Assembly (NCBI GenBank): GCA_913051655.1
Contig: CAJXHI010000006.1
Span: forward strand, 34,273 to 98,272
Reading direction: 5' to 3'
DNA length: 64,000 bases
Source of the DNA: an uncultured Alphaproteobacteria bacterium
GTDB taxonomy: Bacteria > Pseudomonadota > Alphaproteobacteria > Rhodobacterales > Rhodobacteraceae
Part shown: positions 21,658 to 64,000 of the stretch, piece by piece
How positions within the stretch are numbered: position 1 is the stretch's first letter
Layout of the letters: each line of letters starts with the position of its first letter
Notes under the pieces: model-generated
Told to the model about the DNA's origin: nothing
What the model saw: only the letters and a program-made list of their open reading frames with translations
Database searches by the model: none
Translations under genes and position numbers: made by a program

Positions 21658-21718
21658 TCAATCCATCCTAACCGTTTTCACAACCTTGCATTTATTTTTG
21701 TATGTATTAATATTTATT

Positions 21719-21730: not shown

Positions 21731-21744
21731 ATTAAGGGATCATA

Positions 21745-23807: not shown

Positions 23808-25151
23808 AGACACTTTGTTCGACTTGGCAAACGTATCACAGAATTGCGGCAGCGCTCCAAACCTTGAAATGAAGACTTTGCACCAGAGACCTTTCACCAC
23901 CAATTTGAAGCGCGCCTTAAATAGGTTTAGTCCTGCGCGTATAATTATAATTGTACGCACACGTGCAGGCCAGGGATAAATTTCAATGTAAAGCATAAGG
24001 ATCGATGGTGTGCAGGTCGTATTGTGCAATAATGTATTAAAAATCCTTTTTAATGGAAAACCAATTCATCAAAGAGATTGGCAAGACCAGGAAAGCAGAC
24101 TTCATAATTGATCTAAATGTTTGTTTCGAGGCCAGCACTGATCGATGTCTATAGTGACGCATTTCAAAGATTTTTCATGGTCAGAGAGAGCGTTTTTTCA
24201 ATCGAAATAGCCATTCTTAAAAGTGATTTACAGCTTACGCCCAATGGGATTATGACAGTCTATCGTGCTGTAACGCCCGTCTTGAAACTAAACTTACGTA
24301 ACATTTACAGCTCCAGAAATTTTAATGGAGCGACTGCTGCAAGCTCACCTCGGTCAAGCGTTGAAAACTGCATTTAATTACGGTGGAAAACCTTCGCTTT
24401 TGAGGCTTCGGAAGCGTCAAATCAACATTTCTGGGACCACTTTTGCCTTCTATTACTTTTAACGGTCATAGTCCTGAGACGATGCAATCTTGTGCAGACG
24501 CTGAGCCACGTTAATTCACGAATAGAAACACACAACTCATTTCGCAATGTTGGAGCAAAGGCCTCTGAGTTTCCGATGTGAACCGCGGTCGCGAAGTCCG
24601 TCAAAGATAACCACGACTTCGTGGTCTTTCGCGCACCTAATATGCTAGGGGAAGTAAGTTATTTAGGATCAACAAATGTATCAGAAATGATTGCAGATTA
24701 ACTTTGCAATATTTCGGTTTTGATTTATTACTCACCTGCGACTCAAGCCGCGGTGTATCAATTTTCCTTTATTTAGAAACATCTCTGTCCAAATTCTAGT
24801 CGCTTATTTCTAATTGTCCCACACTGGCTTTGAAAATTTATGACTACGGCATCTATAACTTGAAAAATGCACCGATCTTATCCTTGTGGATTGGTGTGGC
24901 TTGCAAAGACCTGCAGTGCGCATAGCTCGCAGCAGCAGCACGCTCGCTTCTCAATCCCTTACATTTTGATTCGCTCAAAAGGCTGAATTGAGATCATATT
25001 TCGACAAGTATGGCAGTGATACCAGCAACTTTTCGCCGTTTGATAAACATTAATTTTTTAATACGCTTTGCTATTTGACCTTTTTTTGATTTGTAACATA
25101 ATAGGCTCTGGAATAAATTTCGCTTGTCTATGATGACACGGGGAAACATCG

Positions 25152-40732: not shown

Positions 40733-41442
40733 GGTACAAGTTTTGATCTTTGCAAAGCCGAAGTTTTAGCAATCTGCTCTTCAGCAAGGATCACCCCCTC
40801 AGGTGTACCAACATCACACCATTTACCATTATATAGCATGCCAAAAACTGTATTATTCCGAAGCATAATATCCCAAATTTTGTTAAGCGAAAAAGCACGC
40901 TCTTTTATCTCAGCAAAAAGGTCTGTTTTAATAATTTGCACCCCAGAATAAACAAGGTCGCCCTTGCGTTGCAGTCTTCCATCTTTTGCCAGCGCAAAAT
41001 CCCCCTGACCAAGATAGCCTACGGTATTGTCAATGCGCACGCACATCAAAAGCGCGTCCATTATTTTTGGATTCCATCTATGTTGTAGGGCGACTAATGG
41101 ATTCTCACCCAACCAGACTACATCTGAATTCAACGTCATCACAGGATTGCTGCCAAGATGCGGCAAAGCCGCCTTAAGCCCGCCACCAGTTTCCAAAACA
41201 TCCGGCCATTCAGGCAATACATTGACGGGTTGTCCAAAAAGGTGCGACACTAACATTTCCTTTTTGAAATGGACGTTTACGACGGTTTTTATCGGGAGGA
41301 TGTCATCTGTCAGAGAAATGGCGTGATCTATTAAAGTACGCCCACCCACTTTAAGCAGCGGTTTTGGTCGGTCATGTACCAAGTGCTTCATCCGCGTGCC
41401 CAAACCAGCAGCAAAGATCATAAGGGCCATATCCTCAGACAT
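40729..41442 (-). CDS. sugar-1-phosphate nucleotidyltransferase (MurU-like)
   Basis: It has an N-terminal nucleotidyltransferase motif (LMIFAAGLGTRMKHL..DRPKPLLKV). The start is set at ATG 41442 (or 41430). The ORF-track N-terminus overlaps the upstream kinase gene. Confidence 0.7.
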   Translation of the reverse strand: MSEDMALMIFAAGLGTRMKHLVHDRPKPLLKVGGRTLIDHAISLTDDILPIKTVVNVHFKKEMLVSHLFGQPVNVLPEWPDVLETGGGLKAALPHLGSNPVMTLNSDVVWLGENPLVALQHRWNPKIMDALLMCVRIDNTVGYLGQGDFALAKDGRLQRKGDLVYSGVQIIKTDLFAEIKERAFSLNKIWDIMLRNNTVFGMLYNGKWCDVGTPEGVILAEEQIAKTSALQRSKLVP

Positions 41443-42433
41443 GCGCAGCTCTTTGCAAATTCCGTGTAGGCGCGGATAGAAGTGACATGAGATCATCATG
41501 AAACGCGTCAAACTCTGCAGCGCCGAGAGTACTTTGAATGTACCCCTTAACACGCGGAATTAGCACAAGATAAGAGGATTTGTTCTCATTGTATGCTAGG
41601 CGAGCGAAAATGCCCAATATCCGTAAATTCCTTTGGATGCCCAAAATACGATAAGAAGCAAAAAAACTTTCGTTGTGCTCGTCCACCTGTGACAAATAAT
41701 AGCCGATCATGTCCTTTTCGATTTCTGGCGTTACGCAACGGCGTGCATCTTGGAGAAGCGAGACCAAATCATAGGCTGGATGGCAGATAAAGGCATCCTG
41801 AAAATCCAACAGCCCCACAGACGCAAAGCCCACACGGTTTTTTAAGAACATCAGATTTTCTGCATGACAATCCCGCAGCGAAATAACACGCTTACCATGA
41901 TCTATCACATTTAAAGCGCCTCTTAACTGCCTCTGGAGAGCAGAGACAACAGTGTGATCTTTTTGATTTTCATCCACGAAATGGTCAAAAAATGGATCCA
42001 GCATAGAAGTCAACACTTCGGAGGACGCGATGTTTAGAGTCTTGGGCGGTTTGAGACTACGCAGATAAATCAGGGCATCTATGGCGTCACGGTATAAGTC
42101 GACTTCGCGCTTTGGGTCGCTTTCCATCAAACGAGCGAAAACCTGATCCCCGAAGTCTTCCAAAAGTATAAGCCCACTTACAAGGTCACACGCGTATATT
42201 GTGGGCACAGACATACCATGGTCACGCAACACCCCCGCTACTTTACAAAATTGCTCTGTCTGGGATCGCTCTACGTCGCGTGCGTCCATCAAAATCGCAG
42301 ATTTACTTGAATTTTTAAGCCGCACGTACCGACGCGCAGACGCATCCGATGTCATTTGCGTAAACGACGCCCCACTCCATCCATGAGTTTCTATAAACCT
42401 GATTATATCTGTATCGAGTTTAGTTATCATCAA
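41435..42433 (-). CDS. aminoglycoside-phosphotransferase-fold kinase (AmgK-like anomeric MurNAc/GlcNAc kinase)
   Basis: 332-aa ORF with APH-type catalytic loop motifs (LRDCHAENLMF; LLDFQDA). It is paired with the MurU-like gene. Confidence 0.7.
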   Translation of the reverse strand: MMITKLDTDIIRFIETHGWSGASFTQMTSDASARRYVRLKNSSKSAILMDARDVERSQTEQFCKVAGVLRDHGMSVPTIYACDLVSGLILLEDFGDQVFARLMESDPKREVDLYRDAIDALIYLRSLKPPKTLNIASSEVLTSMLDPFFDHFVDENQKDHTVVSALQRQLRGALNVIDHGKRVISLRDCHAENLMFLKNRVGFASVGLLDFQDAFICHPAYDLVSLLQDARRCVTPEIEKDMIGYYLSQVDEHNESFFASYRILGIQRNLRILGIFARLAYNENKSSYLVLIPRVKGYIQSTLGAAEFDAFHDDLMSLLSAPTRNLQRAAHV

Positions 42434-42899
42434 GCATATCCTCTAGACGTCTAGACCAGAACCGCTCTTCATAGTGCAGCGCGATTTGACGCTCTTCGTG
42501 TTGGGATGTGGTGATGATGTCAATTTGCAGTGCTTGTTCAGGAATCAGTGACCCTAAAATATCAGGCCACTCAATAAGGCAAATTGCGTTATCAAATGCT
42601 TCTAAAAGGCCCAATTCTTCAACCTCATCCACAGAAAAAAGGCGATAGAGATCTGCATGTACGACTTCCCCGACACGCGTGTCATAGGTTTGAACCAAAG
42701 TAAATGTGGGCGACGGTACGTCTTCTGGTTGCTCCTGCATCGATTGAATAACTGTACGCGCAATAAAACTTTTGCCAACGCCGATATCCCCTCGTAGGAG
42801 AACAATATCTCCCCGCACTAAAGCCGCGCCTAGCGAAAGCGCAAATGCTCGCACTGCGCTTTCTGTTTTCAGATGAACAGATTTCAAACTTCGTGCCAT
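42420..42899 (-). CDS. tsaE: tRNA t6A37 biosynthesis ATPase TsaE
   Basis: It has the P-loop LRGDIGVGKSFIAR and the downstream PSPTFTLVQTY motif. About 159 aa result from the internal Met. Confidence 0.85.
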   Translation of the reverse strand: MARSLKSVHLKTESAVRAFALSLGAALVRGDIVLLRGDIGVGKSFIARTVIQSMQEQPEDVPSPTFTLVQTYDTRVGEVVHADLYRLFSVDEVEELGLLEAFDNAICLIEWPDILGSLIPEQALQIDIITTSQHEERQIALHYEERFWSRRLEDMLDDN

Positions 42900-43983
42900 G
42901 ACGATACCATGACAGCGCAAAGAAAGCTTCACAAGATAGATTTATATGTCAGACAAGATACCGAATGTTTGTATAACTGGAGATTTGTCCAACTACCGCA
43001 TTCGGTGTCCATTTTACTATAAACAACCCATCAGAGAATTTTTTTTGGCCAAATTCTTCGAAAATATCCGCACCAATGATCCATTTATCACCGTGCTGCC
43101 ACAAAATGTATCTAAGCTAAATTTTCAAATAGCTTTTTCCCGTTCCGCGGAATGTCACACTTGCATTTTCTAATTCATTTAAGGACTCGTTGATCTAATC
43201 CTAGGATCGGATTGCAATCACTTTATTGTAATAATCTTTGGAAATTCTTCAATAAGCATTGTAATTGTCCCATCTAATTGAGGTCTGCCAGTCAGTCGGT
43301 AAACAAGTCCGCTAGAAAGCAATCAAAGGTCTTGATAAAATCCTTTTTCAACTTCTGCAGACATCTCGTTCAACCTCTTGCAACAATCTGTGCAATCCTT
43401 CGTTTCAGGCATGATTTGGCTGTCTCTCAAACGGTCAAAGACGCTCATCAATCTGGCTTAGCCATCAGAAAATCAGCGCCTAAACGTGTCAAATCAATCA
43501 GTGCAGGGTTGAACATAATCAATTTGCGCCATTGGTTTAAGTTTGGACGAAGTTCTTTTATGACTGCTCCACACTGACAAGCCGAGTTACACTCACTGCA
43601 TAATTAACACAACCACCAAACTCAGTTACCAATATACAAACCCAAGCGGATTTTTATCCATCAATTTTTCTTGAACTACAGGCTTTAAAAAAATGCATAT
43701 CTGTTACCTAAAATTTAAATTTTCACAAGGCCAAACGCTAGTTTTTACTCACAGACCAAATTGAGATATCCACGCATTTAATGAATTCTTCGATTTGTTC
43801 TGTAATCCGGTGAGAGGGCTAGCGCTTGAGAAATTGGTGCAACTTTATAAAGGAAAATTATATAAATTATGCGTAGACACTAAGCACGATTAATATTTCC
43901 AACCACATATCCATGCGTTTCCCCAATGATGTAATTAAGTCGTCGATCTTAAATCAATGTTCAAATAAAATATAGTCGGTGCT

Positions 43984-50719: not shown

Positions 50720-51707
50720 ATTTCCTGATCCTTTTTGCAAAGCTGTTTCACTTTATTGTGCCACCCTTCGCTACAACGAATGCTAAAGATCGTCTGAATA
50801 CCTTTGTGCATCACCTCAAAGAGTAAATATATTAGCCCCGCGCAAAACGATAAAGTCAACTCTGCAGCGCGGTTTATGTTGCCACAAACATTTTGTAATT
50901 GTCGCGTACCGCAACATTCTGACTATCTCCTTTCCACTTTTCGCGAAAGTAAATTTAAATTCAATTAAACATGCTGCCTTTTCAAATAAAGAGCAAAATA
51001 GGCACATCGCTAAAACTTGTGCTGCGATGGAAGCAATCGATATTAAGGTTCTATTTGCTACGGTCTATAGCGATGAAGCTTGGCTGATTACAAATGTCAT
51101 TATTAAAACACCAGCCATCAATGCAACACGCACGTAGTTACAAAGTGAAAAACTTATCCGCTCGTCATTTATGGAATTTTAATAGTGGAGGAGGCACATG
51201 AATCCCTGATCCGTGAATTATAATGACAGAACTTCTTGTTAAAATATCTGAAAACGGTAGCCTAATTAGTCAGGTAACTAGTGTGTTTGAAAGTGAGATT
51301 AATATCTACACGTGGAATGAGTGATATCCCAGTCCTACACGATGATCTTGACTCGATAAAACGTAAAACTCAAATAAATCGACTGTTTTTAGGCAAATCT
51401 TAATTAGCTGTTTTTTAAAAAATCTAAGTCAAAGAGACGCGAAGTTCATTATTGATATGATGGTAAATATGCGCATTAACATGGCGTTTATTTAAAAATG
51501 ACCAAACACAATTTTGATCAACGCACTTATGAATAAATTAAAGATAGTGATAAATTTGACGTAATTACAGGCCGATATACGTTTTTGGCTGCAACTCACA
51601 CGCTCAACCCAGAACTTTCAAATAACATTTTGAAACAAACAACTGCATTGCAACAACGGGCTCAGTATGCTGCACGATACCAGTTAGAATGCGATTGAGA
51701 GCACACT

Positions 51708-51920
51708 ATGCCGAGTATTCCAGAAAATGAATTTAATACCCAAGGTGTAACGGCTATTCAGCAAACCTTGTAGGACAATAAAGACGTAATCGTTCCGCTC
51801 AGAGGCGAGAACAAGTATGTTGTCATAGGCTTTGAACAGTACAAAAAAGTAAACAAATCTGAGCTAGAAGCTGCCATTCATAAAACTCGCAAACGTATCG
51901 CTGAAGGAGAGCTTGTGTAA
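51708..51920 (+). pseudogene. Phd/YefM-type antitoxin gene with in-frame TAG
   Basis: The translation is MPSIPENEFNTQGVTAIQQTL*DNKDVIVPLRGENKYVVIGFEQYKKV...AEGELV. The stop at 51771-51773 interrupts an otherwise antitoxin-like 70-codon frame. Confidence 0.55.
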
Positions 51921-51956
51921 TAAAATCTTTATTACCATTTGCGTCGCATTGAAGCG

Positions 51957-52239
51957 ATGGAACGAATTATCGGCTAGTATTCAACGAAAGCTAAAACAAG
52001 AATGCCACCGAGTGGATCAAGAAGCACCCCACCTTAAACGATCAATATCTTAAGACCCTGCAATTGAAATTATTGGACATCCATCGCCGATCACTGAGTC
52101 TGTATAAGTTGGCGGCAACATGAGCAAATTAAGCTCGGCCTCAATTAATATCAGCTAACGCATCATACTAGAGCTTATGATCCAAGATAATTGCATCATA
52201 CTGATCAACAGAGGGTCGCATGACTAAGTGTATCGATAA
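51957..52239 (+). pseudogene. RelE/ParE/YoeB-superfamily toxin remnant (multiple stops and frameshifts)
   Basis: Pieces in three frames are YRLVFNES, NATEWIKKHPTLNDQYLKTLQLKLLDIHRRSLSLYKLAAT and RIILELMIQDNCIILINRGSHD*VYR. Together they recapitulate a toxin layout (..hkL.g....yRiiy.i.d..i.i..ig.H..vY). The remnant lies directly after the antitoxin remnant. Confidence 0.5.
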
Positions 52240-52612
52240 CAGTTTAATCTATTGTGAAGTGTCATTCGTTTTATTGACGAAGCAAAGCCAACAGCAAAAA
52301 TACAACATCGGCAAGAAGGGCAAGAAAACGGAAGTTTCGTCACACGCGCAGAATAATTACGCCGGTTAAATTTAATCCAGTTTTGTTTGAAAATAAATTT
52401 ACTTAAAAATCAATACAAATAAGCTTCAATAACATTATACCAGACACATAGAATATATTTGGTAAAAAATTATGATACTGACCGTAATTTATTTAGTAAG
52501 TAAGATAGAGTCACAAGCGGCTACTTGGTATAGATCAGCAGTAGACTTTTAAATGCTTTTTGCTAAGGATGACAGCTCGGCTATCTCTAGCTTCAAGAAA
52601 AATGGATAGAAA

Positions 52613-53935
52613 ATGAATTATTCTTGGTCTTATAAGCTGATGTTTTTGTCAGTAATTTTTTTGTCTGCCTGCAGCAGTGGACTTCCAAACTTACTGAAGC
52701 AAAGTTATTTGATGAAGCGTCAAAAAGATGTGGTTGCTACTCAAACTATAGCTTCCCTTACGCCTAAATTAACTCCAAAAGTCCCAATGCAAGGTAACCT
52801 TGACATAGCAGTAAATTCAGCAGCGAAAGTCCATCCCCAGTTCTTAGCAGCACAATATGGAATAGAGGAGGCTAAGGTAAATTTAGATATAAGTGAGGCA
52901 AGCACAAAACCGCAAATATCTACCTCGATATTCTCTGGGTTAGACGATATTGAAAACCTTTCTGCTGGCGTTACGGCGTCATTAAATCTGCAAACACTTT
53001 TATACGATGGCGGTAAGGCGGACCTCCAAAGATCTCTCGATGAATTAAATATCGAGAATGCGAAATTAAGCCTTGAAAAAGTACAAAATTCTCTCGTGCT
53101 AGGCTTCTACAATGATTTTAACAATCTTGCTTCATTGGAACTCATTGAAGAGGTATATGCAAACAAAATCCAAGTCATTAACGAATATAAGACGCGGCTC
53201 AATACGATGAAAAATGCCGGTGTCATCGACTCTTCAGCGATCTCACAAGCACAAAGGATTAGTAATGATATAACAAAAAATTTGGAGCTGACTTCTATTG
53301 ATAGGCAGCTCGTTGAGGAAAAATTAGGATTGTACTTTTCTGACACAATAATTCCGACAGGCGCGATCCAAAAAAGTATTGCAAAGCTTAAACGTTCAAA
53401 AGCATCGATCCTGAAAAACCTTGAGATTAAAACAGCATATCTACAGGTAAGTGCAGCGACCATAAGAGTGGAACAAGCAAAGAGAACTAATTCTTACGAC
53501 GTGGTTTTTCAATCGGGTGTACGCCAAACAATAGGAAGTAGTCTGGACACACAGCCAACGCTGGGGATTGCATTGTCGAAGCCGGTTTACCGGGGAGGAT
53601 TATTACAAGCACAGATCAATTCGGCAAACGCTTCCAAACAGCGCGCATCTTCTGATTTTAACACTACTTATTCGAAGGTAAAAGAAGAGCTCAAGTTGTT
53701 GGATGTCAACCTCCGAGCTGTTGAAAGAAAGTTAAACATCATAAAACAAGAGACGCTTTTTTCTCGGACGGAAATTGACCGCATTAACTCACAACTTACT
53801 ATAGGCCGGTCCAGTATCAATGACTTAATTTCCGAAGAAAACAATCTTTTAGAATTAGAATTGCAAACCATTCAACTTGAAAAAGAGAAAAACGAATTGA
53901 CCTTCAGCAGATTTAGCTGGCTTGGAGCCATATAA
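52613..53935 (+). CDS. TolC/OEP-family outer-membrane channel lipoprotein
   Basis: 440-aa ORF with a lipobox signal (MFLSVIFLSAC). It shows the two-fold coiled-coil/beta pattern typical of outer-membrane efflux proteins (LNLQTLLYDGGKADLQ...; PVYRGGLLQAQINSA...). The DNA is strongly AT-rich. Confidence 0.7.
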   Translation: MNYSWSYKLMFLSVIFLSACSSGLPNLLKQSYLMKRQKDVVATQTIASLTPKLTPKVPMQGNLDIAVNSAAKVHPQFLAAQYGIEEAKVNLDISEASTKPQISTSIFSGLDDIENLSAGVTASLNLQTLLYDGGKADLQRSLDELNIENAKLSLEKVQNSLVLGFYNDFNNLASLELIEEVYANKIQVINEYKTRLNTMKNAGVIDSSAISQAQRISNDITKNLELTSIDRQLVEEKLGLYFSDTIIPTGAIQKSIAKLKRSKASILKNLEIKTAYLQVSAATIRVEQAKRTNSYDVVFQSGVRQTIGSSLDTQPTLGIALSKPVYRGGLLQAQINSANASKQRASSDFNTTYSKVKEELKLLDVNLRAVERKLNIIKQETLFSRTEIDRINSQLTIGRSSINDLISEENNLLELELQTIQLEKEKNELTFSRFSWLGAI

Positions 53936-54216: not shown

Positions 54217-57200
54217 CTAGACAATATCTAATGTAACCACGTAGGGGTCCTGGGTGAATGTTGAACCGTCCCCGAGTGTCACAGTACCAGATACCGTAAA
54301 GTTTGTAGAAGTTACGGTATCCTTTGGATTTAGGAAAATCGTTACAACCTCATCACTTGAGTCAATTCTACGTGTCCCAGTGTCAAGATCAACGAGGACA
54401 CTATCTGACGCAAGTGCAGTATCTCCAAAACTATTATTATCGAGCACATCATTTACAAGTCCTGTAATCTTTGAAGATAGAAATTTGTACTCCAACCCTT
54501 GAGTGGAATTTCCCTCATTTTCTACGCTATCGGAGACATTTTCCAAATCTACCACCACGGGAGTTATGCTGAAGCTTGCGCCACTTATATCAGTAGAAGT
54601 AGTTGATGAAAGTTCATTAGCGTCAAGCGTTGCTGTAAGCTGGATGTACTTTGTGGTAGACCCGTTAGAGAAGTCTTCATCATTAATAAATGTAGAAGCT
54701 GCCGATTCTGTAACTGTAGACGCAGCCACACTAATTACCTTTGCGACCACCTCTTCAACATCTATCACATTCAATGTTACGGACTCGGTTGCTGTTTTTC
54801 CGTCTGCTGTAGCTACGACATCAAAAGAATAACTGGTTTTGGTTTCATAGTCTGCAGCTTCATTGAGAGTTACGGCACCTTGTGAACTAATGGTGAAAGA
54901 AGCAGCGTCTGTTCCTGTCAAAGAAAATACAATATTTTCGCTATCAATGTCCGCAGCAGTTGCATTTAACACAGTGGAGCTTGCGCTATCTGCTCCCTCC
55001 GTTATTCCAACATCACTTCCTCCAGCATTAGCAACTGTGAGTGTTGGAGCATCATCAACGGCGTTAATAGTGACATTCACTGTGGCAGTATCAGCATCTG
55101 TACCATCGGAAACAGTTACTGTGAAAGAGTCGGAGCCATTTTCATTAGCACTCGGCGTGTAGGTAAACTGACCACCATCACCAAATTCCACTGTTCCTTT
55201 GGTTGAACCAGATGCACTGTAGGTCAACTCAGTTGTCTCGATATCAGTTGCATTAATTGTGCCAGTTACCGAACTGTCCTCGTCAACACTTACCGTTGTA
55301 TCACTCGTCCCAATAACCGGTGTATCGTTTACCGACGTCACAACCAAAGCACCGGGTAAAGTTTCTCCGTCTGCCGTCTCAACCTGGAAGTTAATTGTCC
55401 CAAACCAATTTGCTTCAGGTGTGAACGACGTGCCATCCTCGCTAAGAGCACCCTTGCCAGTTAGGTCTTCGTTCGCGGCAAGGGTTACTGTAGCACCGTC
55501 ATATCCAACGGCTGCAATAGCAATTGAACCAGAGTCTTCATTCCCAGAACCAACCGAGACAGCACCTATCTGCACAGAGACAACTTGTGTTTTATCATCA
55601 GACGTTGTTCCGTCACTCACGGTGATAGTAAAGCTATCTGCACCTTCTTCACCAGCCGTGGCGGTGTATGAGTAGGCGCCCCCTTCCGTAAAGGTTACGG
55701 TCCCTTTGCTTGCACCGGAGGCTGTGTAAGTAAGATCGCTAGTCTCAAGGTCACTTGCAGAAATCGTCCCTGTTGCAGTGCCACCATCATCCAAAACGAC
55801 CAATGCTGCATCAGTATTGTCAGTATCTATTACTGGGGCGTCGTTCACTGAGCTAACAACTAGAACACCAGGCAATTCACCTTCTGAAGTTGTAATGTCA
55901 AAGGCAACACTTCCAAACCAGTTTGAGTTTGGAGTGAACACTCCGTTTTCGAATGTACCTTTAGAAACTAAGTCGGTTTCACTCGCAGCAACGGCAAATG
56001 TCGCGTCTGCATATCCTTCTGCAGAGAGAGTAATTGCGCCGCCATCCTCAATACCACTTCCAACGGGTATTGAATCAACAACAAGCAATTCTGCTGTCGA
56101 AGACGATGTTACACCGGCTGTGTCGTTGACTGTATATGAAAAAGTAACGGTTGCATTCTCATCTCCATCCACAGGAGTGAATGTAAACGTATTGTTTCCA
56201 TTATCTACGATTGCGCCAGCACCTTGCTGTATGGAAACAGATTTTAGGGTTTTTGTATCTCCAACATCGACATCAGTAACGGCGTCTGCGAAATCATCAA
56301 TTGTAAGGGTCTTAGCGACAGTGTCTCTTAGTATTCCCAAATCAACCGAAGTAGCAATTGGTGCATCATTCGTGTTTTCGACTGAAACAGAAATCTCTTG
56401 TGTCGCAGATAAGGAATAAGCATCTGTCGCTGTCACAACAATAGTAAAGGTTTCAGAAGTTACATCGCCATTGTCAGGCGTGCCCGTAATAGCACCCGTT
56501 GCTTCGTCAATTGACAACCATTCAACAGGACTTGCAAGGCTATACGTTAAAACGTCATTTGTGTCATGTCCATTTGCAATATCCGGGTCAGTAAAGAGTG
56601 CTGCAGCATCGTACGCTAGGGCAGCGTCTTCTGTAGCAGTCACGCTTACAGCACTTTGTGTGACAGTCTCTGGGCTATCGTTAGTGTTTGTAACTGTTAT
56701 CTTAAAAGCTTCAGAAGATACTTTCGCTCCAGCGGCGTCAGACCCGCTTACAGTTACTGTATACTCGCCATATGCGGAAGATGAAGGCTTTCCAGAGATA
56801 ACACCGGTGCTTTCATCGATTGTCACTCCATCTGGTAGTCCTTCAGCAGAAAATGTCAGCGCGTCGGCTGTATCAGCGTCTTCAAATGCTCCGCCAAAAT
56901 TAATCACTGAACTATCAGAAATCTCTAGACCTTGCGCAATTGCAACATCCGCTGGCGTCTCAAAATCGCCAACAAGTGTCGGTGCATCATTTTCCCCAAT
57001 TATCTTAACAGTAACAATTTTTGAAGCTCGAATTGTACTCTCGCTATCAATAAAAACCGGCGCCCCTTCAGCATCTGTTACGTAGACCTTAAAAGTCTCA
57101 ACTATTTGGAAATTAACATCCGTAAAGTTTACACCTTCTTTTGCGTTTACAGCACCTTTATTAACTGGAGCCTGGAGCGCATTTAAATCTGACATTGTTG

Positions 57201-58473
57201 AAGCTGATAACGTGTATGTCCATTGACCTTCTGCAGTAAGAGATAGTGTACCTTTGGCATCACCAGCACCCAAGAAATCTATACTTTCCGTATCAAATTG
57301 ATAGCTAATTTCATCGGCTAAGTCCGGGTCAGTTATAGCAAGAGCCCCGGTGATAGTATGCGCTTCAGCACCACCGAGGTCATTATCCTCTGATAACTCG
57401 GCGATCGTATCCCCGCTTACACGAATATATGTCCCAGCCAGCGCAGCAATATCGGCTGTTTTCAAAAATGTCAGCCCAGCGACATCACCACTTTGGGCAG
57501 CAGATTGAGCCGTCTCTGCTAGGATTGACTGCGCCGCAAATAAAACATCTCCGGCAGTATCGGCTGTAGTATCGGTCACTGTGTCGATTGCCGTTGCAAT
57601 CGTCGCAACCGCATCACCCAGAGCCGTAGTTAGGCCAGCGTTTGCAGCAACCTGGGTTGTAGCGTTAGTAATTACCGTTGTTACTAGTGCCGCATCAACA
57701 ACTAATTCAGTCTCAGCGTTAGCGGCAATTAATGCCTGGTCTGCAATTGTTTCAAGCGCAGATAGGATCACAGTTCCTTTATCGGCACCGCCGGCAGACG
57801 CCTCAGCAGTTGCGATTGTGTTTGCAACCGCCACGATTTTTGCTGCGGCCTGAGCATATGAAACAGCATCTTCACTGGTTGTATCCCCACTGAATGGATT
57901 GAATGTCGCCAATGATTCTGTCGAGTCAGCGCCCGTGAACGCCTCGGACAAACCCAAGGCCTTCGCCGCCTGTCCGTAAGCATCATTAATTGCCTCTTCA
58001 ATTTGCTCGTCCGTTGCCCCAGCACCAAGTGCATCAATTGCGTCGTCGGCTATTTTTTTTGCGACTGTTGTAGCCGGCGAAATTACAGATGAACCTGTTG
58101 GAGCGGTTAGAACAAGCCCGTCTACACTGGCACCAGATGAAGCGTCTGTTGTTTCACTCGTTCCAACGACGACCAAAGGACCTGTTGCGTTGGTAGTCAG
58201 AGTAAATGTACCATCTGAGCTCGTCCAAGCCCAATCTTCCGAACCATCAAGAAGGTTGTTGTTATTTGAGTCCACAAACACCTTGGCGCGAGCCAGCGGA
58301 CCATCGAATGCAACACCCGAAATTGACGGCCCGTCTTCTCTATTTTGTATAATACAACCACTCAAACCTTGCGCAAACAAAACAAGTACGGCTGTGGAGG
58401 ATCCTCTTTTCAACGCGCGCTCATAGTTAAGCTTCTTTGCAACGTGAGATTGAATATTAGTTAACTGGTTCAT
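54217..58473 (-). CDS. giant lipobox-bearing surface protein with cadherin-like/VCBS-type repeats
   Basis: 1418-aa ORF whose N-terminal signal ends in LSGC (Cys-40). An Ala/Thr-rich segment spans about aa 140-350. At least six beta-domains are delimited by (E/T/S)N(T)ND(A/S/T)P boundaries (ENDAPT, NTNDSPE, NTNDAPI, SVNDAPV, SVNDTPV, AVDDAPT). The protein is very acidic with no Cys after the lipobox. Confidence 0.75.
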   Translation of the reverse strand: MNQLTNIQSHVAKKLNYERALKRGSSTAVLVLFAQGLSGCIIQNREDGPSISGVAFDGPLARAKVFVDSNNNNLLDGSEDWAWTSSDGTFTLTTNATGPLVVVGTSETTDASSGASVDGLVLTAPTGSSVISPATTVAKKIADDAIDALGAGATDEQIEEAINDAYGQAAKALGLSEAFTGADSTESLATFNPFSGDTTSEDAVSYAQAAAKIVAVANTIATAEASAGGADKGTVILSALETIADQALIAANAETELVVDAALVTTVITNATTQVAANAGLTTALGDAVATIATAIDTVTDTTADTAGDVLFAAQSILAETAQSAAQSGDVAGLTFLKTADIAALAGTYIRVSGDTIAELSEDNDLGGAEAHTITGALAITDPDLADEISYQFDTESIDFLGAGDAKGTLSLTAEGQWTYTLSASTMSDLNALQAPVNKGAVNAKEGVNFTDVNFQIVETFKVYVTDAEGAPVFIDSESTIRASKIVTVKIIGENDAPTLVGDFETPADVAIAQGLEISDSSVINFGGAFEDADTADALTFSAEGLPDGVTIDESTGVISGKPSSSAYGEYTVTVSGSDAAGAKVSSEAFKITVTNTNDSPETVTQSAVSVTATEDAALAYDAAALFTDPDIANGHDTNDVLTYSLASPVEWLSIDEATGAITGTPDNGDVTSETFTIVVTATDAYSLSATQEISVSVENTNDAPIATSVDLGILRDTVAKTLTIDDFADAVTDVDVGDTKTLKSVSIQQGAGAIVDNGNNTFTFTPVDGDENATVTFSYTVNDTAGVTSSSTAELLVVDSIPVGSGIEDGGAITLSAEGYADATFAVAASETDLVSKGTFENGVFTPNSNWFGSVAFDITTSEGELPGVLVVSSVNDAPVIDTDNTDAALVVLDDGGTATGTISASDLETSDLTYTASGASKGTVTFTEGGAYSYTATAGEEGADSFTITVSDGTTSDDKTQVVSVQIGAVSVGSGNEDSGSIAIAAVGYDGATVTLAANEDLTGKGALSEDGTSFTPEANWFGTINFQVETADGETLPGALVVTSVNDTPVIGTSDTTVSVDEDSSVTGTINATDIETTELTYSASGSTKGTVEFGDGGQFTYTPSANENGSDSFTVTVSDGTDADTATVNVTINAVDDAPTLTVANAGGSDVGITEGADSASSTVLNATAADIDSENIVFSLTGTDAASFTISSQGAVTLNEAADYETKTSYSFDVVATADGKTATESVTLNVIDVEEVVAKVISVAASTVTESAASTFINDEDFSNGSTTKYIQLTATLDANELSSTTSTDISGASFSITPVVVDLENVSDSVENEGNSTQGLEYKFLSSKITGLVNDVLDNNSFGDTALASDSVLVDLDTGTRRIDSSDEVVTIFLNPKDTVTSTNFTVSGTVTLGDGSTFTQDPYVVTLDIV
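55054..56070 (-). repeat. tandem duplication of a ~169-codon two-domain unit inside the 1418-aa gene
   Basis: aa 802-970 (IPVGSGIEDGGAITLSAEGYADATF...NWFGSVAFDI...SSVNDAPVIDT...LTYTASGASKGTVTFTEGGAYSYTA...DSFTITVSDGT) parallels aa 971-1140 (VSVGSGNEDSGSIAIAAVGYDGATV...NWFGTINFQV...TSVNDTPVIGT...LTYSASGSTKGTVEFGDGGQFTYTP...DSFTVTVSDGT). Confidence 0.75.
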
Positions 58474-58486
58474 GTTAAGGCCCTAT

Positions 58487-60955
58487 TTATATAACAAATG
58501 TTCCGCTCAGATCTACATCACCGTTCTGGACAAGATAAAGGTTGGTGTCAACTGATGCAGTGCTTAGTTCGGTAACTACGTTACCACTTGAGTCAGAAAC
58601 ATCAAATGAAGTTATCGTTTCAAGTCCAACAATGTGTTTCAAGTTTGCTATAACATCTGCTATAGCAATTTCACCATCGTTATTGACATCAGCTGCCGCT
58701 GCGGAATTTCCGCTTAATGGTGACAATCCCACAATATCCTTTAACTGCGCAATAACATCGGAGATCGCAATATCGCTCTGATAAGTAGTAGATTGATTAC
58801 TTATCTGGGCGTGTGTGAATGATATACTTGTTTCAAGTAACATAGAACCGCTGGACACAGTGGCATCTAAAACAGTAGTACTGTCCGACACAAACTGAAT
58901 TTGCACCCCATCGGGTGCTGCCGGTGGATTAGCCTCAGCTGCATCAAATATAGAAAATGTGGTTCCAGCCCTATCGTTATCAATTACCGAGATAGACTGA
59001 TTTCCGATTGTGTTTAAATATTTGACGGAGGTTGTGCCCCCCTCTGCAATCGCGTGCTGAATAGCATGCGTATGAATGCCATCATTATTTTGTCCTGCTT
59101 CGATGACTGTATCATCCTCCGCACGCACAATAATTGTCGCACTTGGAGAGGCAGAACTCAATTCAAAGGAACTTGCAGAAACAAATTCTAAGCCAGAACC
59201 TTCTAGGTTAAGGGTTAGAGCCTCTTCGTTTAAGTTACTCGCCGTGATTGTGTATGTTGCCGTTGCACTTTCTGATGCCTCAGAAACCACCCCAGCAGCT
59301 GACGAATATACCACTTCAGATACTGTGAAACTTGCAATGTTCTCATTGACGGTGAATGATGTGGCAGAAACACTCAAATCATTAAAGGCTAGATCTAAGC
59401 TCTGTGTTGAATAAGAAAGTGAAACAGTTTCCGACAGGCCGGCGCCATCGGTATTACTTATTGCGGAGACATTGAAGGTTTGGCTGGTAGTCGTAGCGTC
59501 TAGTTGAATGCGATATGTATTATCTTGTGCAGATACTAGCAGGACATTATCACCTTCGATGGTCAGGTCATCAGGTGCGCTCAAAATCAAATTAACAGTT
59601 TCACTTGGTACGCCATCAAGTGTTGCAGTTAAGGTTTGAAATGATGATGCGTCACCTTCAACAAGAGGTGTCCCTTCTGCGCCAGAAATTAAAACGCCTG
59701 CATTCGCTGTATTAAGAGTGTACTTTACCAAGCCAGATTGATCGCTTGGCACTGTAAGTATGCCTAAATCCGACACACCGGAGCCATCTCGCACTGCTAC
59801 GTATAATTTCTGGCTTTCAGCACCAGCGCCAGCAACATATTTTGCAGTTTCGAACTCGGAAGCCGTTAAGGCATAAAAGAAGCCCGACACATTATCCGCC
59901 GTTTTCGCCGCTATAGACGTAAAATCGGAGGCGCCATTATCCTGATACTGTATAGTACCATTTGTATTTTCAGATCCCAGTAGCCCAACAATATAAGTTG
60001 AAATATTTCCATTGGGCGTATCTGCAGTATCACCATCACTTGCTGTCACCAGTGTGGATAAAAGAGTTTCGCTAGAAGTTGAGACATTGGAATAAACGTT
60101 TTCATTCTCAACAGGGACATCATAAGCGCCTGATAATACGCCATTAACAGATACTGATGGTGTGGAGTTATAATCTGTAGTACCCGTCAGAGAAAGAGTG
60201 TAATTCTTACCGAATTCTGATGAGTCCCCAAATGTTTCGGAGTTATTGGCTGTCACGTTAACAAAATATGTTCCGGCTTCAGTCGGTGACGATGCGGCCA
60301 CAGTGAACGTCAAACTTCCGTCGCTCTGTCCCGCACTTGTCGAAAGTGCTTCACCACCAGATTTACTAATGGTCGCACCATTTGCGTCCGTGATCTTTAC
60401 ATCATAATACGTTGCATCAGAAGCAAAGGCAGAAAGTGTCAGAGACACAGTTCCACCGTCGTCTGCACCAGTCGTGAAATAATACCAATCGCTATCTGAC
60501 GCGCTACTTAAATTACCTTTGAAATTTGCATTATCGATGAGCAAATTAGACGTGGCAATCGTATCGTTCGTTGTATTTGAACCTAATTCTGACTCGGCTG
60601 TCTCGATCACCGAATAGCTCAAAGTATAATTGCTGGAATCATAAGAGTCTGAACTTGCTACGCGTATGTAGTACGGCGTATCTGGATCTGCATCCGCGGT
60701 AAAGCTACCTGCAACTCTAAACTGGGAACTCTCAACAACAGAATCAGATTGGTTCCTAATAGACACATCAAACAGGTTGTTTTGGCTGCTAAAATCACCT
60801 TCGAAATTGACAACTATTTGCGAAGGCACAGAAAAATTATCTGCGGAGAGTTTGAAATAGTCCTTATCATCAGAGTTCGAAAGGTTGTCGGTCTTTTCTA
60901 TTCCACTTAGGAGAGGAAGGGGACCTGCTGAGATTGAACCACGTGCGTCAGCCAT
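58487..60955 (-). CDS. secreted multidomain protein: 2x PPC-like, Calx-beta-like, C-terminal dockerin-like duplication
   Basis: 822-aa ORF with no signal peptide. Two pre-peptidase-C-terminal-like modules are present (DKDYFKL...YYIRV...YTLSYS; DSDWYYFT...YFVNV...YTLSLT). Calx-like ends are present (IIVRAEDDTVIE; ISVIDNDRAG). The C-terminus holds DVIAQLKDIVGL / DVNNDGEIAIADVIANLKHIVGL. GGAG precedes the ATG. Confidence 0.7.
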   Translation of the reverse strand: MADARGSISAGPLPLLSGIEKTDNLSNSDDKDYFKLSADNFSVPSQIVVNFEGDFSSQNNLFDVSIRNQSDSVVESSQFRVAGSFTADADPDTPYYIRVASSDSYDSSNYTLSYSVIETAESELGSNTTNDTIATSNLLIDNANFKGNLSSASDSDWYYFTTGADDGGTVSLTLSAFASDATYYDVKITDANGATISKSGGEALSTSAGQSDGSLTFTVAASSPTEAGTYFVNVTANNSETFGDSSEFGKNYTLSLTGTTDYNSTPSVSVNGVLSGAYDVPVENENVYSNVSTSSETLLSTLVTASDGDTADTPNGNISTYIVGLLGSENTNGTIQYQDNGASDFTSIAAKTADNVSGFFYALTASEFETAKYVAGAGAESQKLYVAVRDGSGVSDLGILTVPSDQSGLVKYTLNTANAGVLISGAEGTPLVEGDASSFQTLTATLDGVPSETVNLILSAPDDLTIEGDNVLLVSAQDNTYRIQLDATTTSQTFNVSAISNTDGAGLSETVSLSYSTQSLDLAFNDLSVSATSFTVNENIASFTVSEVVYSSAAGVVSEASESATATYTITASNLNEEALTLNLEGSGLEFVSASSFELSSASPSATIIVRAEDDTVIEAGQNNDGIHTHAIQHAIAEGGTTSVKYLNTIGNQSISVIDNDRAGTTFSIFDAAEANPPAAPDGVQIQFVSDSTTVLDATVSSGSMLLETSISFTHAQISNQSTTYQSDIAISDVIAQLKDIVGLSPLSGNSAAAADVNNDGEIAIADVIANLKHIVGLETITSFDVSDSSGNVVTELSTASVDTNLYLVQNGDVDLSGTFVI
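58622..58798 (-). other. duplicated dockerin-like (EF-hand loop + helix) segment
   Basis: The second copy, DVNNDGEIAIADVIANLKHIVGL (58622-58690), fits the D-x-N-x-D-G-x-I-x-x-x-D Ca loop plus amphipathic helix. The first copy, QSDIAISDVIAQLKDIVGL, keeps the helix but has a degenerate loop. Confidence 0.55.
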
Positions 60956-60973
60956 TTCTTCTACTCCAACTTA

Positions 60974-63900
60974 TTAAATAATATCTGAGACAATAAACAT
61001 GGAGGCGTCTAGCTCATCTTTAGACACATTCTCAATTAACACCGAGTTGTTTTCACCTAAATTTATGAGAGCACCATCTGACGTATCTGATATGCGCGAT
61101 AAGACACCCGAACCCGAACTGATACTTGTTCCATTTACCAGTGACTTAATCTCAATTTTATCACCGTCTGTGAAATCGGAGACTCTGTCAGTACCAGAGC
61201 TGTCATCAAATATGAAGACATCGTTTCCATCACCTCCGGCCAATATATCAGAACCATCACCTGACGTAATTTCGTCGCTGAAATCTGTACCATCTTGATT
61301 CGTAATCGTATTTAACCCGTCTTGCAGTGAAAAACTGGTAACACTTTCAGAAGCAGTTTCAAGTTCGACTACACCATCGCTAAACTCCAACTTCTCAATT
61401 CCAACCAGAGTATCGACTTCATCATCTTTTGTAACTGTGTATACGTCCAATATTTCATGCACATCGTGAACTATAAACTGATTATCGTTGCTATCAGTTG
61501 CACGGAGAACCTTGACTAATTCCATTGTTGCAGTGTCAAAGTTATCGTCCGCAGATCCAGTGTAAACACTGATGCCATTTTCAGAACCGCCTACAAAATA
61601 GCCTTCTGACGTAGTACCATCGCTCTCAAAAGCCTGCACAACATCTGCGGTTCCGTCGCCATCCCCATCATACGTTTCGCTAACTTTTGCAACGTAAACT
61701 TCGTCTATAGCTGTAAACACTGTAGGCTTATTGCTTACATCAATGTCCTTGTCTGATAGCTCCTTAATCGCACCCTCTTCGACCTCAAGGAGTATGCATT
61801 CACCGCTTTCCGAAACGTATCCTGTACAAAGTACAAAACCGGCCTCTGCGATAGTGAAATCAGCCTGTTCATCCTCGCCAATTTCTCCGTCGCCATCAAC
61901 ATCTGATGACGTTGCTTTGCCCTCAAAAACGGCTGTGTCAAACAAAGCTTCACCTTTGGCGTCAACTCCAGCATCCGCACCACCAAAGATGAAGTCACTG
62001 CCCGCGCCACCTGTGACCATGTCACCACCGTCGCCGGCAGCTATAACATCATCCCCGGAACCACCATCTATATAATCAGTGAGTTTACCTGTCGAAACTA
62101 GATCTTCGTTACCAGTGGTCCCTTTGACAACTGTTTCATCAACAACGCCGTCGTCATCTACATCCAAGTTTGTTGTAAGAACTTCAAGACTTTGAAATCC
62201 ATCTTCATATTCAACGCCTTCAACACCCTTTACGTATACTTTGTATCCTGAAATGTCACTTGTCGTGTAAAGAAGATAGTCGGAATAATTTCCTTCACCG
62301 CTCTCAGAGGACCAAGTTGACTGAGCTCCATCAAGTATAACGATGTCAGTGCCTTCTCCACCATCAATAACGTCAGTTGTAGAGGACGTTGCTTTCCCAG
62401 GTAAAATAAGGTCATCACCTGCTCCCGCTTCGATGGTGTCTGATCCAAAGCCACCATCAATCACGTTATTTGCAGCTAACATATTTTCTGCGACCGCCTC
62501 AGTAACATTGAGTGTTTCTACTAGCCCTGAGCTGGTAAAGCTTTCGCCGGCCAGACCACCAAAGATTTCGGCTACATCAAAAATGCCGTCATAATTGAAG
62601 TCATCATAACGGTGCTCAGCATCAAAGTTTAAGAAACCGTCTTTCAGTTCGATACCTTCAACTTCTGCTACGTAGTCAGTCCCGGTCGTCTCACTTTCAA
62701 ACTTATAGGCTGAAATTGCAGTGAAACCTTCATCTACTTCCGCGTCGGAATACAATTTCACGGCACCATCAGTATCGAGCTGATATTCACCTGTTACGCC
62801 GTCCTTCGCGAAATAACTACCATTTTCCGCAAAAGTTGTGAATTCAGAGAGATTTACATCGAACGCAACAACATCCATTTCAAATTCATTATCATCGCCG
62901 GCTAGAATAAAGTCATCATTCGCGCCGCCGTCGAGGTAGTCGCTGCCTTTACCACCAATCAGAGTGTCGTTACCTGCTTTACCCTCTAACTTATCATCCA
63001 TTTCATCGCCAGTAAGCGCATCAGCAGCACTTGTACCGCGCTGGCCACCAGCATCTGGCAGTCCATCACCGTCAAGATCTACAAAAGTATTGGAGGCTAT
63101 AAAACTGATAAAGTCGTCGTCAAACTGTAAGGCCTCGATCCCGTAAAGTGTATCAGTACCCAATGCAACGCTATCATCACTGCGGGAGTCTGCGACGGTA
63201 ATGTACCCATCTATTTGATAATCGGATGCTACTTCGCCGTCATAGTTATAATAAGTGATTTCGAAGTTTTCACTATCTGCATGAAAGATAGCAACATCTT
63301 CACCAGGGTTACCCCATTCATCGGTTCCATTTTGCCCACCCCGAATAGTGTCGTTTCCAGCGCCACCAATAAAGTGGTCCGGACCACCATTCCCAACTAA
63401 GGTATCAGCTCCAGAACGGCCCTCCATGAAGTCAGATCCAGATGTGCCCTCGATAGTGTCGCCAAAAATACTTCCAAAGTAGTCAGTACCGATGGTGTCG
63501 CCCAAATGATTGGTTCTTTCAAACGCTTCTGTACCAATATTTATTCGCTGATCATTGAATTCCAGAACCTCAACATTGGTTATTGTGTCGGTGCCGTCAC
63601 CATGTTGATCCGAATGGGTTACTGTGATTGTTAGAACGCCATCCACATCTGCGTCTTCAATTTCGTAATCAACGTAGTCACCGTTATAGCGGACAACATC
63701 CACCATAATATGACCAGAATAAGGATCTATCCCGTCTTCTCCACCATCAATAATGTCATCGCCGGCTCCACCTTTGATGAAATCACCGCCTGCGCCACCG
63801 TAAATCGTATCGTTGCCATTGTTCCCGATGAGATCATCATTTCCAGAATAATTATAAGAACCAGCTGTGACAGTGCTAGCATCAGCAACACCAATAATGT

Positions 63901-64000
63901 CATTACCATCGGTGCCGTCCACAAAGGCCCGTACCATCTGACCGGCAGCATTGGTTTCTATGAATTCTTCCACCGCCAAAGCAAGATACTTATCTTGGAA
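60974..64000 (-). CDS. RTX-type calcium-binding protein, type I secretion substrate (5' end beyond or at window edge)
   Basis: At least 1001 aa. The frame stays open from the TTG at 63977-63979 to nt 64000. Repeated GGxGxD nonapeptide blocks are present (GGAGGDFIKGGAGDDIIDGG; GNGGPDHFIGGAGNDTIRGG; GKAGNDTLIGGKGSDYLDGG; GGSGDDVIAAGDGGDMVTGGAGSDFIFGG; SGDGSDILAGGDGNDVFIF). Each block is followed by a D.V.F.G....F/Y...G.E.L.F-type module. The C-terminus is acidic and hydrophobic (...DELDASMFIVSDII). Confidence 0.85.
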   Translation of the reverse strand, partial: FQDKYLALAVEEFIETNAAGQMVRAFVDGTDGNDIIGVADASTVTAGSYNYSGNDDLIGNNGNDTIYGGAGGDFIKGGAGDDIIDGGEDGIDPYSGHIMVDVVRYNGDYVDYEIEDADVDGVLTITVTHSDQHGDGTDTITNVEVLEFNDQRINIGTEAFERTNHLGDTIGTDYFGSIFGDTIEGTSGSDFMEGRSGADTLVGNGGPDHFIGGAGNDTIRGGQNGTDEWGNPGEDVAIFHADSENFEITYYNYDGEVASDYQIDGYITVADSRSDDSVALGTDTLYGIEALQFDDDFISFIASNTFVDLDGDGLPDAGGQRGTSAADALTGDEMDDKLEGKAGNDTLIGGKGSDYLDGGANDDFILAGDDNEFEMDVVAFDVNLSEFTTFAENGSYFAKDGVTGEYQLDTDGAVKLYSDAEVDEGFTAISAYKFESETTGTDYVAEVEGIELKDGFLNFDAEHRYDDFNYDGIFDVAEIFGGLAGESFTSSGLVETLNVTEAVAENMLAANNVIDGGFGSDTIEAGAGDDLILPGKATSSTTDVIDGGEGTDIVILDGAQSTWSSESGEGNYSDYLLYTTSDISGYKVYVKGVEGVEYEDGFQSLEVLTTNLDVDDDGVVDETVVKGTTGNEDLVSTGKLTDYIDGGSGDDVIAAGDGGDMVTGGAGSDFIFGGADAGVDAKGEALFDTAVFEGKATSSDVDGDGEIGEDEQADFTIAEAGFVLCTGYVSESGECILLEVEEGAIKELSDKDIDVSNKPTVFTAIDEVYVAKVSETYDGDGDGTADVVQAFESDGTTSEGYFVGGSENGISVYTGSADDNFDTATMELVKVLRATDSNDNQFIVHDVHEILDVYTVTKDDEVDTLVGIEKLEFSDGVVELETASESVTSFSLQDGLNTITNQDGTDFSDEITSGDGSDILAGGDGNDVFIFDDSSGTDRVSDFTDGDKIEIKSLVNGTSISSGSGVLSRISDTSDGALINLGENNSVLIENVSKDELDASMFIVSDII

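Follow-up and report, generated by a model that had tools for sequence, protein, structure and literature searches.

PrsDE, a type I secretion system (T1SS) of Rhizobium leguminosarum, exports the cadherin-like (Ra/CHDL) Rap proteins together with Ply glycanases (PMC9298526, PMC2275737). In Chlorochromatium aggregatum, a gene for an RTX protein that is a T1SS substrate lies beside a gene for a protein with immunoglobulin (Ig) repeats and a C-terminal dockerin (Cag_2037/Cag_2038), and the two products have been proposed to join on the cell surface (bioRxiv 10.64898/2026.03.19.712371). We analyzed a locus that resembles both systems in a 64,000-nucleotide stretch of DNA (the window) from an uncultured alphaproteobacterium (contig CAJXHI010000006.1, positions 34,273 to 98,272). 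The locus contains three genes, here called A, B, and C, for a giant RTX protein, an uncharacterized partner protein, and a cadherin-like lipoprotein, and a convergent gene for a TolC-family outer-membrane factor. We consider it probable, with some reservation, that this region is the cargo end of a conserved T1SS cluster that builds an acidic, Ca2+-dependent surface structure in pelagic Paracoccaceae (Roseobacter-type bacteria). A model-generated annotation of the same sequence (the original prediction) had described A, B, and C as a multicomponent surface module.

Results

Genes A, B, and C are three long open reading frames (ORFs) arranged head to tail on the minus strand. Their coordinates and the 18- and 13-nt gaps between them agree with the layout of three co-directional genes in the original prediction. 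The features of the locus are as follows.

60974 to beyond 64000, minus strand: gene A, 3' part (last 1008 codons), giant RTX Ca-binding protein and presumed T1SS substrate; ends ...MFIVSDII
60956 to 60973, minus strand: A-B junction, 18 nt, with GGAG 10 nt before the gene B ATG
58487 to 60955, minus strand: gene B, 822 aa, leaderless, cysteine-free, acidic; uncharacterized family
60179 to 60898, minus strand: B residues 20-259, two beta-sandwiches like PPC/collagen-binding domains (5iku profile and Foldseek matches)
58796 to 60157, minus strand: B residues 267-720, string of Ig-like beta-sandwich domains (secondary structure of the AlphaFold2 model)
58490 to 58888, minus strand: B residues 690-822, C-terminal module with a dockerin-like helix pair (model helices, weak dockerin matches)
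58474 to 58486, minus strand: B-C junction, 13 nt (direct reading of the sequence)
54217 to 58473, minus strand: gene C, 1418 aa, acidic lipoprotein with cadherin-like/tandem-95 repeats; ends ...VVTLDIV
58354 to 58473, minus strand: C residues 1-40, lipoprotein signal peptide with lipobox L-S-G-C (16-orthologue alignment)
57364 to 58353, minus strand: C residues 41-370, N-terminal beta domain and Ala/Thr-rich spacer (conserved alignment columns)
54754 to 57351, minus strand: C residues 375-1240, VCBS, He_PIG, Cadherin_5, Big_9, and cadherin repeats (Pfam and NCBIfam)
54220 to 54741, minus strand: C residues 1245-1418, C-terminal beta domain with no family assigned (orthologue alignments)
52613 to 53935, plus strand: TolC-family outer-membrane factor, 440 aa, lipobox L-S-A-C (PF02321 OEP)

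The GGAG upstream of gene B, found by direct reading, is a Shine-Dalgarno sequence. A terminator scan found no terminator-like hairpin or site in the A-B or B-C junction. Across the window, promoter and terminator scans gave counts no higher than in shuffled sequence, and Rfam and tRNA scans gave no matches. Related loci (denoted by L numbers) have similarly short gaps, with 14-37 nt between A and B in L003, L006, L022, and L023 and 14-24 nt between B and C in L003, L022, and L023. All three products are very acidic (isoelectric point (pI) ~4.05, lysine plus arginine ~3%), as had been predicted.

The gene order is conserved. A B-like gene follows A in every related locus with visible downstream DNA, and this strict linkage argues that B is not a bystander. 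Lineages in which the B protein is only 50-77% identical to that of the window likewise have the A-B-C order with a convergent outer-membrane gene. We found the arrangement in the species of the single-cell genome described below (B 50% identical), in the metagenome-assembled genome GCA_014466335.1 (L022; B 59% identical over the first 325 residues), and in the closest relative, L023 (C 69% identical). In more distant loci, C instead lies upstream and is divergent. The linkage of A to B and the recurring order bear out the proposal of a multicomponent module and indicate that A, B, and C are not chance neighbors.

The gene that converges on C (52613 to 53935) codes for a TolC-like protein that matches the outer-membrane efflux family PF02321 OEP (E = 6.4e-23, 82 bits against a cut-off of 22). 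Its best NCBIfam model is TIGR01844 type_I_sec_TolC (E = 1.8e-17), with a score of 63.5 bits that falls below the cut-off of 225. The protein carries an L-S-A-C lipobox in which Cys20 is its sole cysteine, and lipobox-bearing TolC-like homologues occupy the same convergent position in L003, L022, and L023, making four lineages with the window. We presume that this protein is the exit duct of a T1SS. The original prediction saw no ATP-binding cassette (ABC) or membrane-fusion genes for secretion, which is true of the window, but it overlooked this TolC-family gene.

Genes for a T1SS exporter and adaptor are found near A in a relative. Upstream of A, L011 carries an LssB-type ABC exporter with a C39-like domain (TIGR03375, 743 bits, cut-off 693), an HlyD adaptor (TIGR01843, 322 bits, cut-off 209), and, in divergent orientation, a serralysin-like RTX protease. 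The L011 locus is collinear with L010/L022, in which A-B-C and the outer-membrane gene are present. The composite order is thus ABC exporter and adaptor (forward), protease (reverse), A-B-C (forward), and outer-membrane factor (reverse).

Gene B codes for a protein that begins with a Met1 that is invariant among homologues and lacks a hydrophobic leader, in keeping with the earlier description of a leaderless 822-aa protein. It contains no cysteine and has a pI of 4.05. No Pfam or NCBIfam family matched B at E < 0.01. None of its 58 homologues has a functional name, and the family is almost exclusively metagenomic. Among 185,579 species genomes, gene B was present in only one, the single-cell genome of Paracoccaceae bacterium AH-700-A06.

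An AlphaFold2 model of B (mean predicted local distance difference test (pLDDT) score 77) contains two N-terminal beta-sandwiches (residues 20-259), a series of Ig-like sandwiches (267-720), a three-helix piece (731-775), and terminal strands. The collagen-binding domain of ColG is a member of the PPC superfamily. Residues 20-259 of B matched the tandem collagen-binding domain of ColG (5iku) in a PDB profile search (E = 0.0033) and in Foldseek (E = 5.9e-8), and the sandwiches carry the motifs DKDYFKL and DSDWYYF. The PPC-like assignment in the original prediction therefore holds at the level of fold and of a weak sequence match to ColG, but Pfam PPC (PF04151) had no match in B or in 24 orthologues. 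The same N-terminal unit is repeated in other very large proteins (P0286, P0295, P0299, P0312, and others), with as many as 18 matched stretches in a single 3429-aa protein. This many-fold repetition indicates that the PPC-like unit is a widespread repeat module in its own right.

The Ig-like region gave only generic multi-Ig fold matches, including the RTX-adhesin extender 6xi1. Generic multi-Ig proteins also dominated a fold search with the whole B model, which was informative only for the ColG and RTX-extender matches. It is the part of B that the original prediction had called Calx-like. Neither Pfam nor the PDB supports a Calx-beta domain there (residues ~520-665), since PF03160 had no match at E <= 1 in 25 orthologues and a PDB profile search returned no Calx-beta domain at E <= 1.

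The C-terminal module of B is shared with many other proteins. A profile search with B against 1.84 billion representative proteins returned 2008 relatives at E <= 0.001, of which 686 reach E <= 1e-10; many align only to the last 130-170 residues of B. We ran a hidden Markov model of B residues 690-822 on 147 listed representatives and found the module in 74, within 15 residues of the C-terminus in 61 of them. By a crude test, 63 of the 64 module carriers that start with Met have no signal peptide, and in 13 carriers the module is preceded by RTX repeats. Carriers have endings of the type ...NGDADQSHADWDFV or ...DIV. The domains joined to the module include a C-type lectin, a polysaccharide lyase, an M10 protease with RTX repeats, a cyclophilin, an FSH1 hydrolase with RTX repeats, and He_PIG.

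In B, the module consists of a beta unit, a dockerin-like helix pair (residues 725-778), and terminal strands ending NGDVDLSGTFVI. The AlphaFold2 model places helices at residues 731-741, 749-755, and 765-775. The helix segment is duplicated (IAISDVIAQLKDIVGL and IAIADVIANLKHIVGL). Both helices are present, and the second Ca2+ loop, DVNNDGEIAIAD, is of the canonical DxNxDG type, while the first is degenerate. Matches to the PDB dockerins 2ccl and 1ohz were weak in a profile search (E = 0.16-0.37). Pfam Dockerin_1 matched nine of 25 B orthologues below threshold (best E 0.011), and the window B had no match at E < 1. Among module carriers, P0371 scored 24.1 bits against the Dockerin_1 cut-off of 22.9, and P0404 scored 22.5 bits. 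The earlier dockerin-like call is thus upheld for the family, in which P0371 exceeds the cut-off, and is weak for the window B itself.

The module also occurs at internal positions. It lies at residues ~130-256 of the serralysin-like proteases encoded directly upstream of A in L014, L016, L019, and L021, and in these proteins it must be more than a C-terminal secretion signal. Additional small proteins encoded in L006 contain the module as well. One L006 gene (14407-14904), called at 165 aa within an open frame of 202 codons, encodes little beyond the dockerin-like module. On the opposite strand, L006 contains a mirrored second set (14296-23876) consisting of a 2730-aa RTX giant and a B-like protein of 1120 aa. 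The C-terminus of another carrier, P0326, reads ...CLLYTSDAADE, which we take to be a translation of the Nextera adapter TGTCTCTTATACACATCTGACGCTGCCGACGA; the apparently internal position of its module is therefore an assembly artefact. From its sequence, B looks like a T1SS cargo whose tail is a dockerin-type Ca2+-binding module that is reused in this gene neighborhood.

We considered whether the module could be a docking device. In such a scheme, it would act as a Ca2+-dependent plug that attaches B, the serralysin-like proteases, and other leaderless exoproteins to C or A, giving a cellulosome-like display fed by a T1SS. The scores of carriers above the Dockerin_1 cut-off, the internal position of the module in the proteases upstream of A, and its attachment to enzyme and lectin domains, as in cellulosomal dockerins, are all in line with docking. 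The C. aggregatum pair offers a precedent, in that an RTX protein with a cohesin is encoded beside a bacterial Ig-like (BIg) protein with a C-terminal dockerin. A cohesin partner did not emerge here, however. Pfam Cohesin had no match in A, B, C, or the full-length A homologues, and PDB sequence searches with the N-terminal regions of A found none. For the C-terminal domain of C, a sequence profile search gave no match, and Foldseek against the PDB returned no cohesin and nothing below E = 0.016; the underlying AlphaFold2 model (residues 1235-1418, made with the help of 11 orthologue fragments) is weak (pLDDT only 54). Taking the degenerate first Ca2+ loop of B into account as well, we regard docking as unlikely.

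Gene C codes for a predicted lipoprotein with cadherin-like repeats. In the sequence KRGSSTAVLVLFAQGLSGC, L-S-G-C occupies residues 37-40 and fits the pattern [LVI][ASTVI][GAS]C, with a charged n-region and then a hydrophobic h-region in front of it. An alignment of 16 orthologues (39-70% identity) showed that F33, A34, G36, L37, G39, and C40 are invariant (F-A-x-G-L-[SA]-G-C). Cys40 is the sole cysteine of the C product, and distant C-like genes in L014, L019, and L021 have an LAGC lipobox. The invariant lipobox and the single cysteine argue that C is lipidated. Under the Lol rule of E. coli, lipoproteins without Asp at position +2 are sorted to the outer membrane, and C has no Asp at this position.

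Following the signal peptide, residues 41-370 of C comprise a beta domain with the motif GVAFDGPL..AKVF.D.N.N..LD and an Ala/Thr-rich spacer that is probably helical. Pfam had no match before residue 375. The repeat region matched Big_9 (4.5e-33, 114.4 bits against 23.6), Cadherin_5 (5.3e-29, 100.4 against 26.5), He_PIG (1e-21), Cadherin_4, and Cadherin in Pfam, as well as VCBS and NF012211 tandem-95 (162.7 bits, cut-off 90) in NCBIfam. Linker motifs of the xNDxP type (ENDAP, TNDSP, TNDAP, VNDAP, VNDTP, and VDDAP) can be read in the translation. The original prediction of a 1418-aa protein with a lipobox and cadherin-like domains is well supported by the invariant L-S-G-C and by these above-cut-off matches.

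The extreme C-terminus of C, [TI][LI]D[IV][VI], is conserved in 15 of the 16 orthologues, and A, B, and the proteases end in a similar way. This ending raises a second alternative, in which C is a two-step cargo that is moved by Sec to the periplasm, lipidated or not, and then leaves through the TolC-like duct, so that all three proteins become extracellular. A similar pairing of a predicted Sec signal with a T1SS-like C-terminus is present in the marine adhesin BapP. We consider this route very unlikely for C: the periplasm is not on the path of classical T1SS cargo, the invariant lipobox with its sole cysteine favors lipidation, and the shared ending may be just a final beta-strand.

Gene A is cut by the end of the window, as its frame remains open to base 64000. 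The part within the window matches PF00353 HemolysinCabind in seven stretches (E = 1.3e-30, Pfam) and contains tandem GGxGxDxUx nonapeptides. Its last 100 aa align to the C-terminal end (519-615 of 616) of the NCBIfam model for PueA/B polyurethane esterases, and the C-terminus resembles the ends of models for T1SS-secreted esterases and serralysins. C-terminal T1SS signals have no strict consensus. The final residues of A, ...SDII, place an acidic residue before hydrophobic ones. The original prediction of an RTX protein with a T1SS-like C-terminus agrees with these features, but the window holds only a 3' fragment and not the whole gene.

Two Tara Oceans contigs, L001 and L002 (99.1% and 99.98% identical to the window), extend gene A to at least 2151 aa. 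They lengthen it by 3.1-3.4 kb and then end inside a 288-nt tandem repeat, so the length of A in this lineage is only a lower bound. In L001, the repeat (positions 1-718, the upstream part of gene A) has a 96-aa unit, HPAYYNMDSHEVLDQSR..., present in at least 2.5 copies at 93% identity, and is followed by a Gly/His/Glu-rich 24-nt repeat. The 288-nt repeat is presumably the place where assemblies break; scaffold L023 also carries a gap inside gene A.

Complete A homologues in related loci are 4158, 4284, 4424, 4472, and 4992 aa long. In the 4158- and 4992-aa proteins, 13-14 RTX stretches are spread over the whole length (Pfam), HemolysinCabind is the only Pfam match, and no Ig-like extender array was found. 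Full-length homologues begin MERTEISLFGSEV... and MDLNEFGADEL..., without a hydrophobic leader; the start of the window A lies outside the window. When the N-terminal 800 aa of two full-length homologues were searched against PDB sequences, only RTX blocks came up, and no retention module or cohesin.

A third alternative, that A is a LapA/MpIBP-type RTX adhesin held in the TolC pore with B and C unrelated to it, or else an RsaA-like surface-layer subunit trimmed by a Sap-like protease, draws on the giant size of A, its RTX repeats, the adjacent T1SS genes, the 96-aa tandem repeat further upstream on L001, and the serralysin-like protease beside A in relatives (as Sap lies beside RsaA), but the presence of HemolysinCabind without a BIg extender array along the two homologues, the strict A-B linkage, which argues that B is no bystander, the lack of any S-layer family match for A in Pfam or NCBIfam scans, and the gene lists of the fetched loci, in which we noticed no LapG, LapD, or N-terminal retention module (no dedicated search was made), make it remoter still.

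Several other genes and regions near the locus were recorded. Between the Fe-alcohol dehydrogenase and TolC-like genes, the window contains ~1.9 kb (50741-52612) with no ORF longer than 63 codons and a G+C content of 0.38-0.42. At the equivalent place beside the TolC-like gene, L023 (15958-24272) encodes a second giant of at least 3517 aa with RTX, PPC, Peptidase_S8, P_proprotein, and He_PIG domains, which is probably a further cargo of the same secretion system. We asked if the window region is a remnant of this RTX/subtilisin giant and found no similarity. Just beyond the outer-membrane gene, L022 (16580-17431) carries a LuxR-type regulator (Autoind_bind and GerE), which hints at quorum-sensing control of the module in the GCA_014466335.1 lineage.

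The remaining window content consists of common alphaproteobacterial housekeeping genes (AddAB, TsaE, HslUV, and genes for fatty-acid oxidation). At 34422-42932 (minus strand), genes for a nucleotidyltransferase, an APH-like kinase, and TsaE precede an AddA/AddB-type helicase-nuclease pair, an arrangement that is typical of Alphaproteobacteria and fits the Paracoccaceae assignment of the sole genome relative. A gene on the plus strand (25152-26573) codes for a 473-aa protein that consists almost wholly of MORN repeats (PF02493, E = 1.8e-100, 10 stretches) and lies in a patch of lower G+C (0.44-0.45) at a sign change of the GC skew.

Discussion

The three proteins carry the complementary targeting signals described in the original prediction, with RTX repeats and a T1SS-like C-terminus in A, no leader and a C-terminal module in B, and an invariant lipobox in C. 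We propose that A and B, which appear to be made without leader peptides, are exported C-terminus first by the ABC exporter and HlyD adaptor, together with the protease in relatives. They would leave the cell through the putatively lipidated TolC-like channel encoded at 52613-53935. Seawater Ca2+ would then fold the RTX beta-rolls of A and the PPC-like, Ig-like, and dockerin-like modules of B. C would cross by Sec, become lipidated at Cys40, and be sorted to the outer membrane, and its cadherin-like repeats would form a Ca2+-stiffened stalk there. In this model, the presumably co-transcribed A, B, and C, plus the serralysin-like protease in relatives, would build or remodel an acidic, Ca2+-dependent coat or adhesive structure. 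The pairing of one anchored partner (C) with two exported ones (A and B) is a plausible hypothesis.

Some observations weigh against this T1SS-cargo model. The window itself has no ABC exporter or adaptor gene, and these were seen only in the relative L011. The TolC-like protein scores 63 bits, far below the curated T1SS TolC cut-off of 225. C ends in TLDIV, an acidic-plus-hydrophobic motif typical of T1SS cargo, so C may be released instead of being kept anchored. A has neither the tandem Ig-like extender array nor the recognizable retention module that mark proven RTX adhesins; for A, adhesion would be by analogy only. What we suggest about the expression, localization, and binding of the three proteins is drawn from sequence.

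Pelagic Roseobacter-type bacteria are abundant in the surface ocean and mostly uncultured, and their surface display of enzymes and adhesins is poorly known. Three very acidic Ca2+-binding proteins take up well over 20 kb of the cluster, which is found again in many marine metagenomes. The cluster reveals two uncharacterized elements, namely a B family strictly tied to a giant RTX gene and a dockerin-like module present in dozens of leaderless exoprotein families. There is a modest chance that the B module defines a widespread, undescribed group of T1SS-exported leaderless exoproteins that plug Ca2+-dependently into a surface scaffold formed by C or A. If so, the system would be a Gram-negative, T1SS-fed counterpart of the cellulosome through which free-living ocean bacteria present proteases, lyases, lectins, and hydrolases. 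Should the module serve for docking or as a secretion tag, it would aid the prediction of marine exoproteomes and could possibly be used for display or secretion. If the module is neither, the locus is one more T1SS surface-protein cluster.

We compared the locus to described systems. The statement in the original prediction that no named system has this composition was too strong, because the locus belongs to a T1SS cluster (TolC-like gene in the window; ABC exporter, HlyD, and protease genes in relatives) with close known analogues. The Pseudomonas LapA/LapEBC, Marinomonas MpIBP, Salmonella SiiE, and Legionella RtxA/LssBD systems also feature a very large, acidic, Ca2+-binding RTX protein, leaderless like the full-length homologues of A. 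ABC exporter, HlyD adaptor, and TolC-like genes lie alongside in those systems; here the window has the TolC-like gene and L011 the other two, and the L011 exporter belongs to the LssB subfamily, as in Legionella. In those systems, the RTX repeats form one C-terminal block, whereas the RTX blocks of A are dispersed and no Ig-like extender array was detected. A retention module and LapG/LapD were not seen at this locus, though no dedicated search was made. Gene A is always followed by B and is linked to a cadherin-like lipoprotein, and the TolC-like protein has a lipobox.

The PrsDE-Rap system is similar in that a single T1SS in an alphaproteobacterial host exports several acidic, Ca2+-binding, cadherin-like extracellular proteins that shape the surface matrix. 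Compared by description, all Rap proteins are small T1SS cargo with genes dispersed over the genome, whereas the cadherin-like protein described here is a 1418-aa lipoprotein encoded with the cargo. The cadherin-like repeats of C are reminiscent of Saccharophagus degradans CabC/CabD and of tandem-95 proteins, which likewise are large, acidic marine proteins that consist of bacterial cadherin-like repeats with Ca2+-binding linkers. C is distinguished from them by its invariant lipobox, its own N-terminal domain and Ala-rich spacer, and its fixed place in a T1SS cluster.

The Cag_2037/Cag_2038 pair matches the A-B arrangement, as the gene for an RTX T1SS substrate adjoins that of a dockerin-tailed Ig-like protein. 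The C. aggregatum RTX protein has a recognizable type II cohesin, of which no counterpart was found here; the pair comes from another phylum and has no lipoprotein partner. B shares with clostridial cellulosome dockerins a duplicated helix segment, a DxNxDG Ca2+ loop, and a module that is C-terminal on enzymes and lectins. Unlike those dockerins, B falls below the Pfam cut-off and has a degenerate first loop, and its module is carried by leaderless, RTX-associated proteins that are not Sec-exported and for which no cohesin was found. Dispersed RTX blocks without a detected extender array, the obligatory coupling of A and B, a cadherin-like lipoprotein with a lipobox-bearing outer-membrane factor, and a dockerin-type module shared with many leaderless exoproteins set this locus apart from the systems it most resembles, and a full-text literature search turned up no account of these features in combination.

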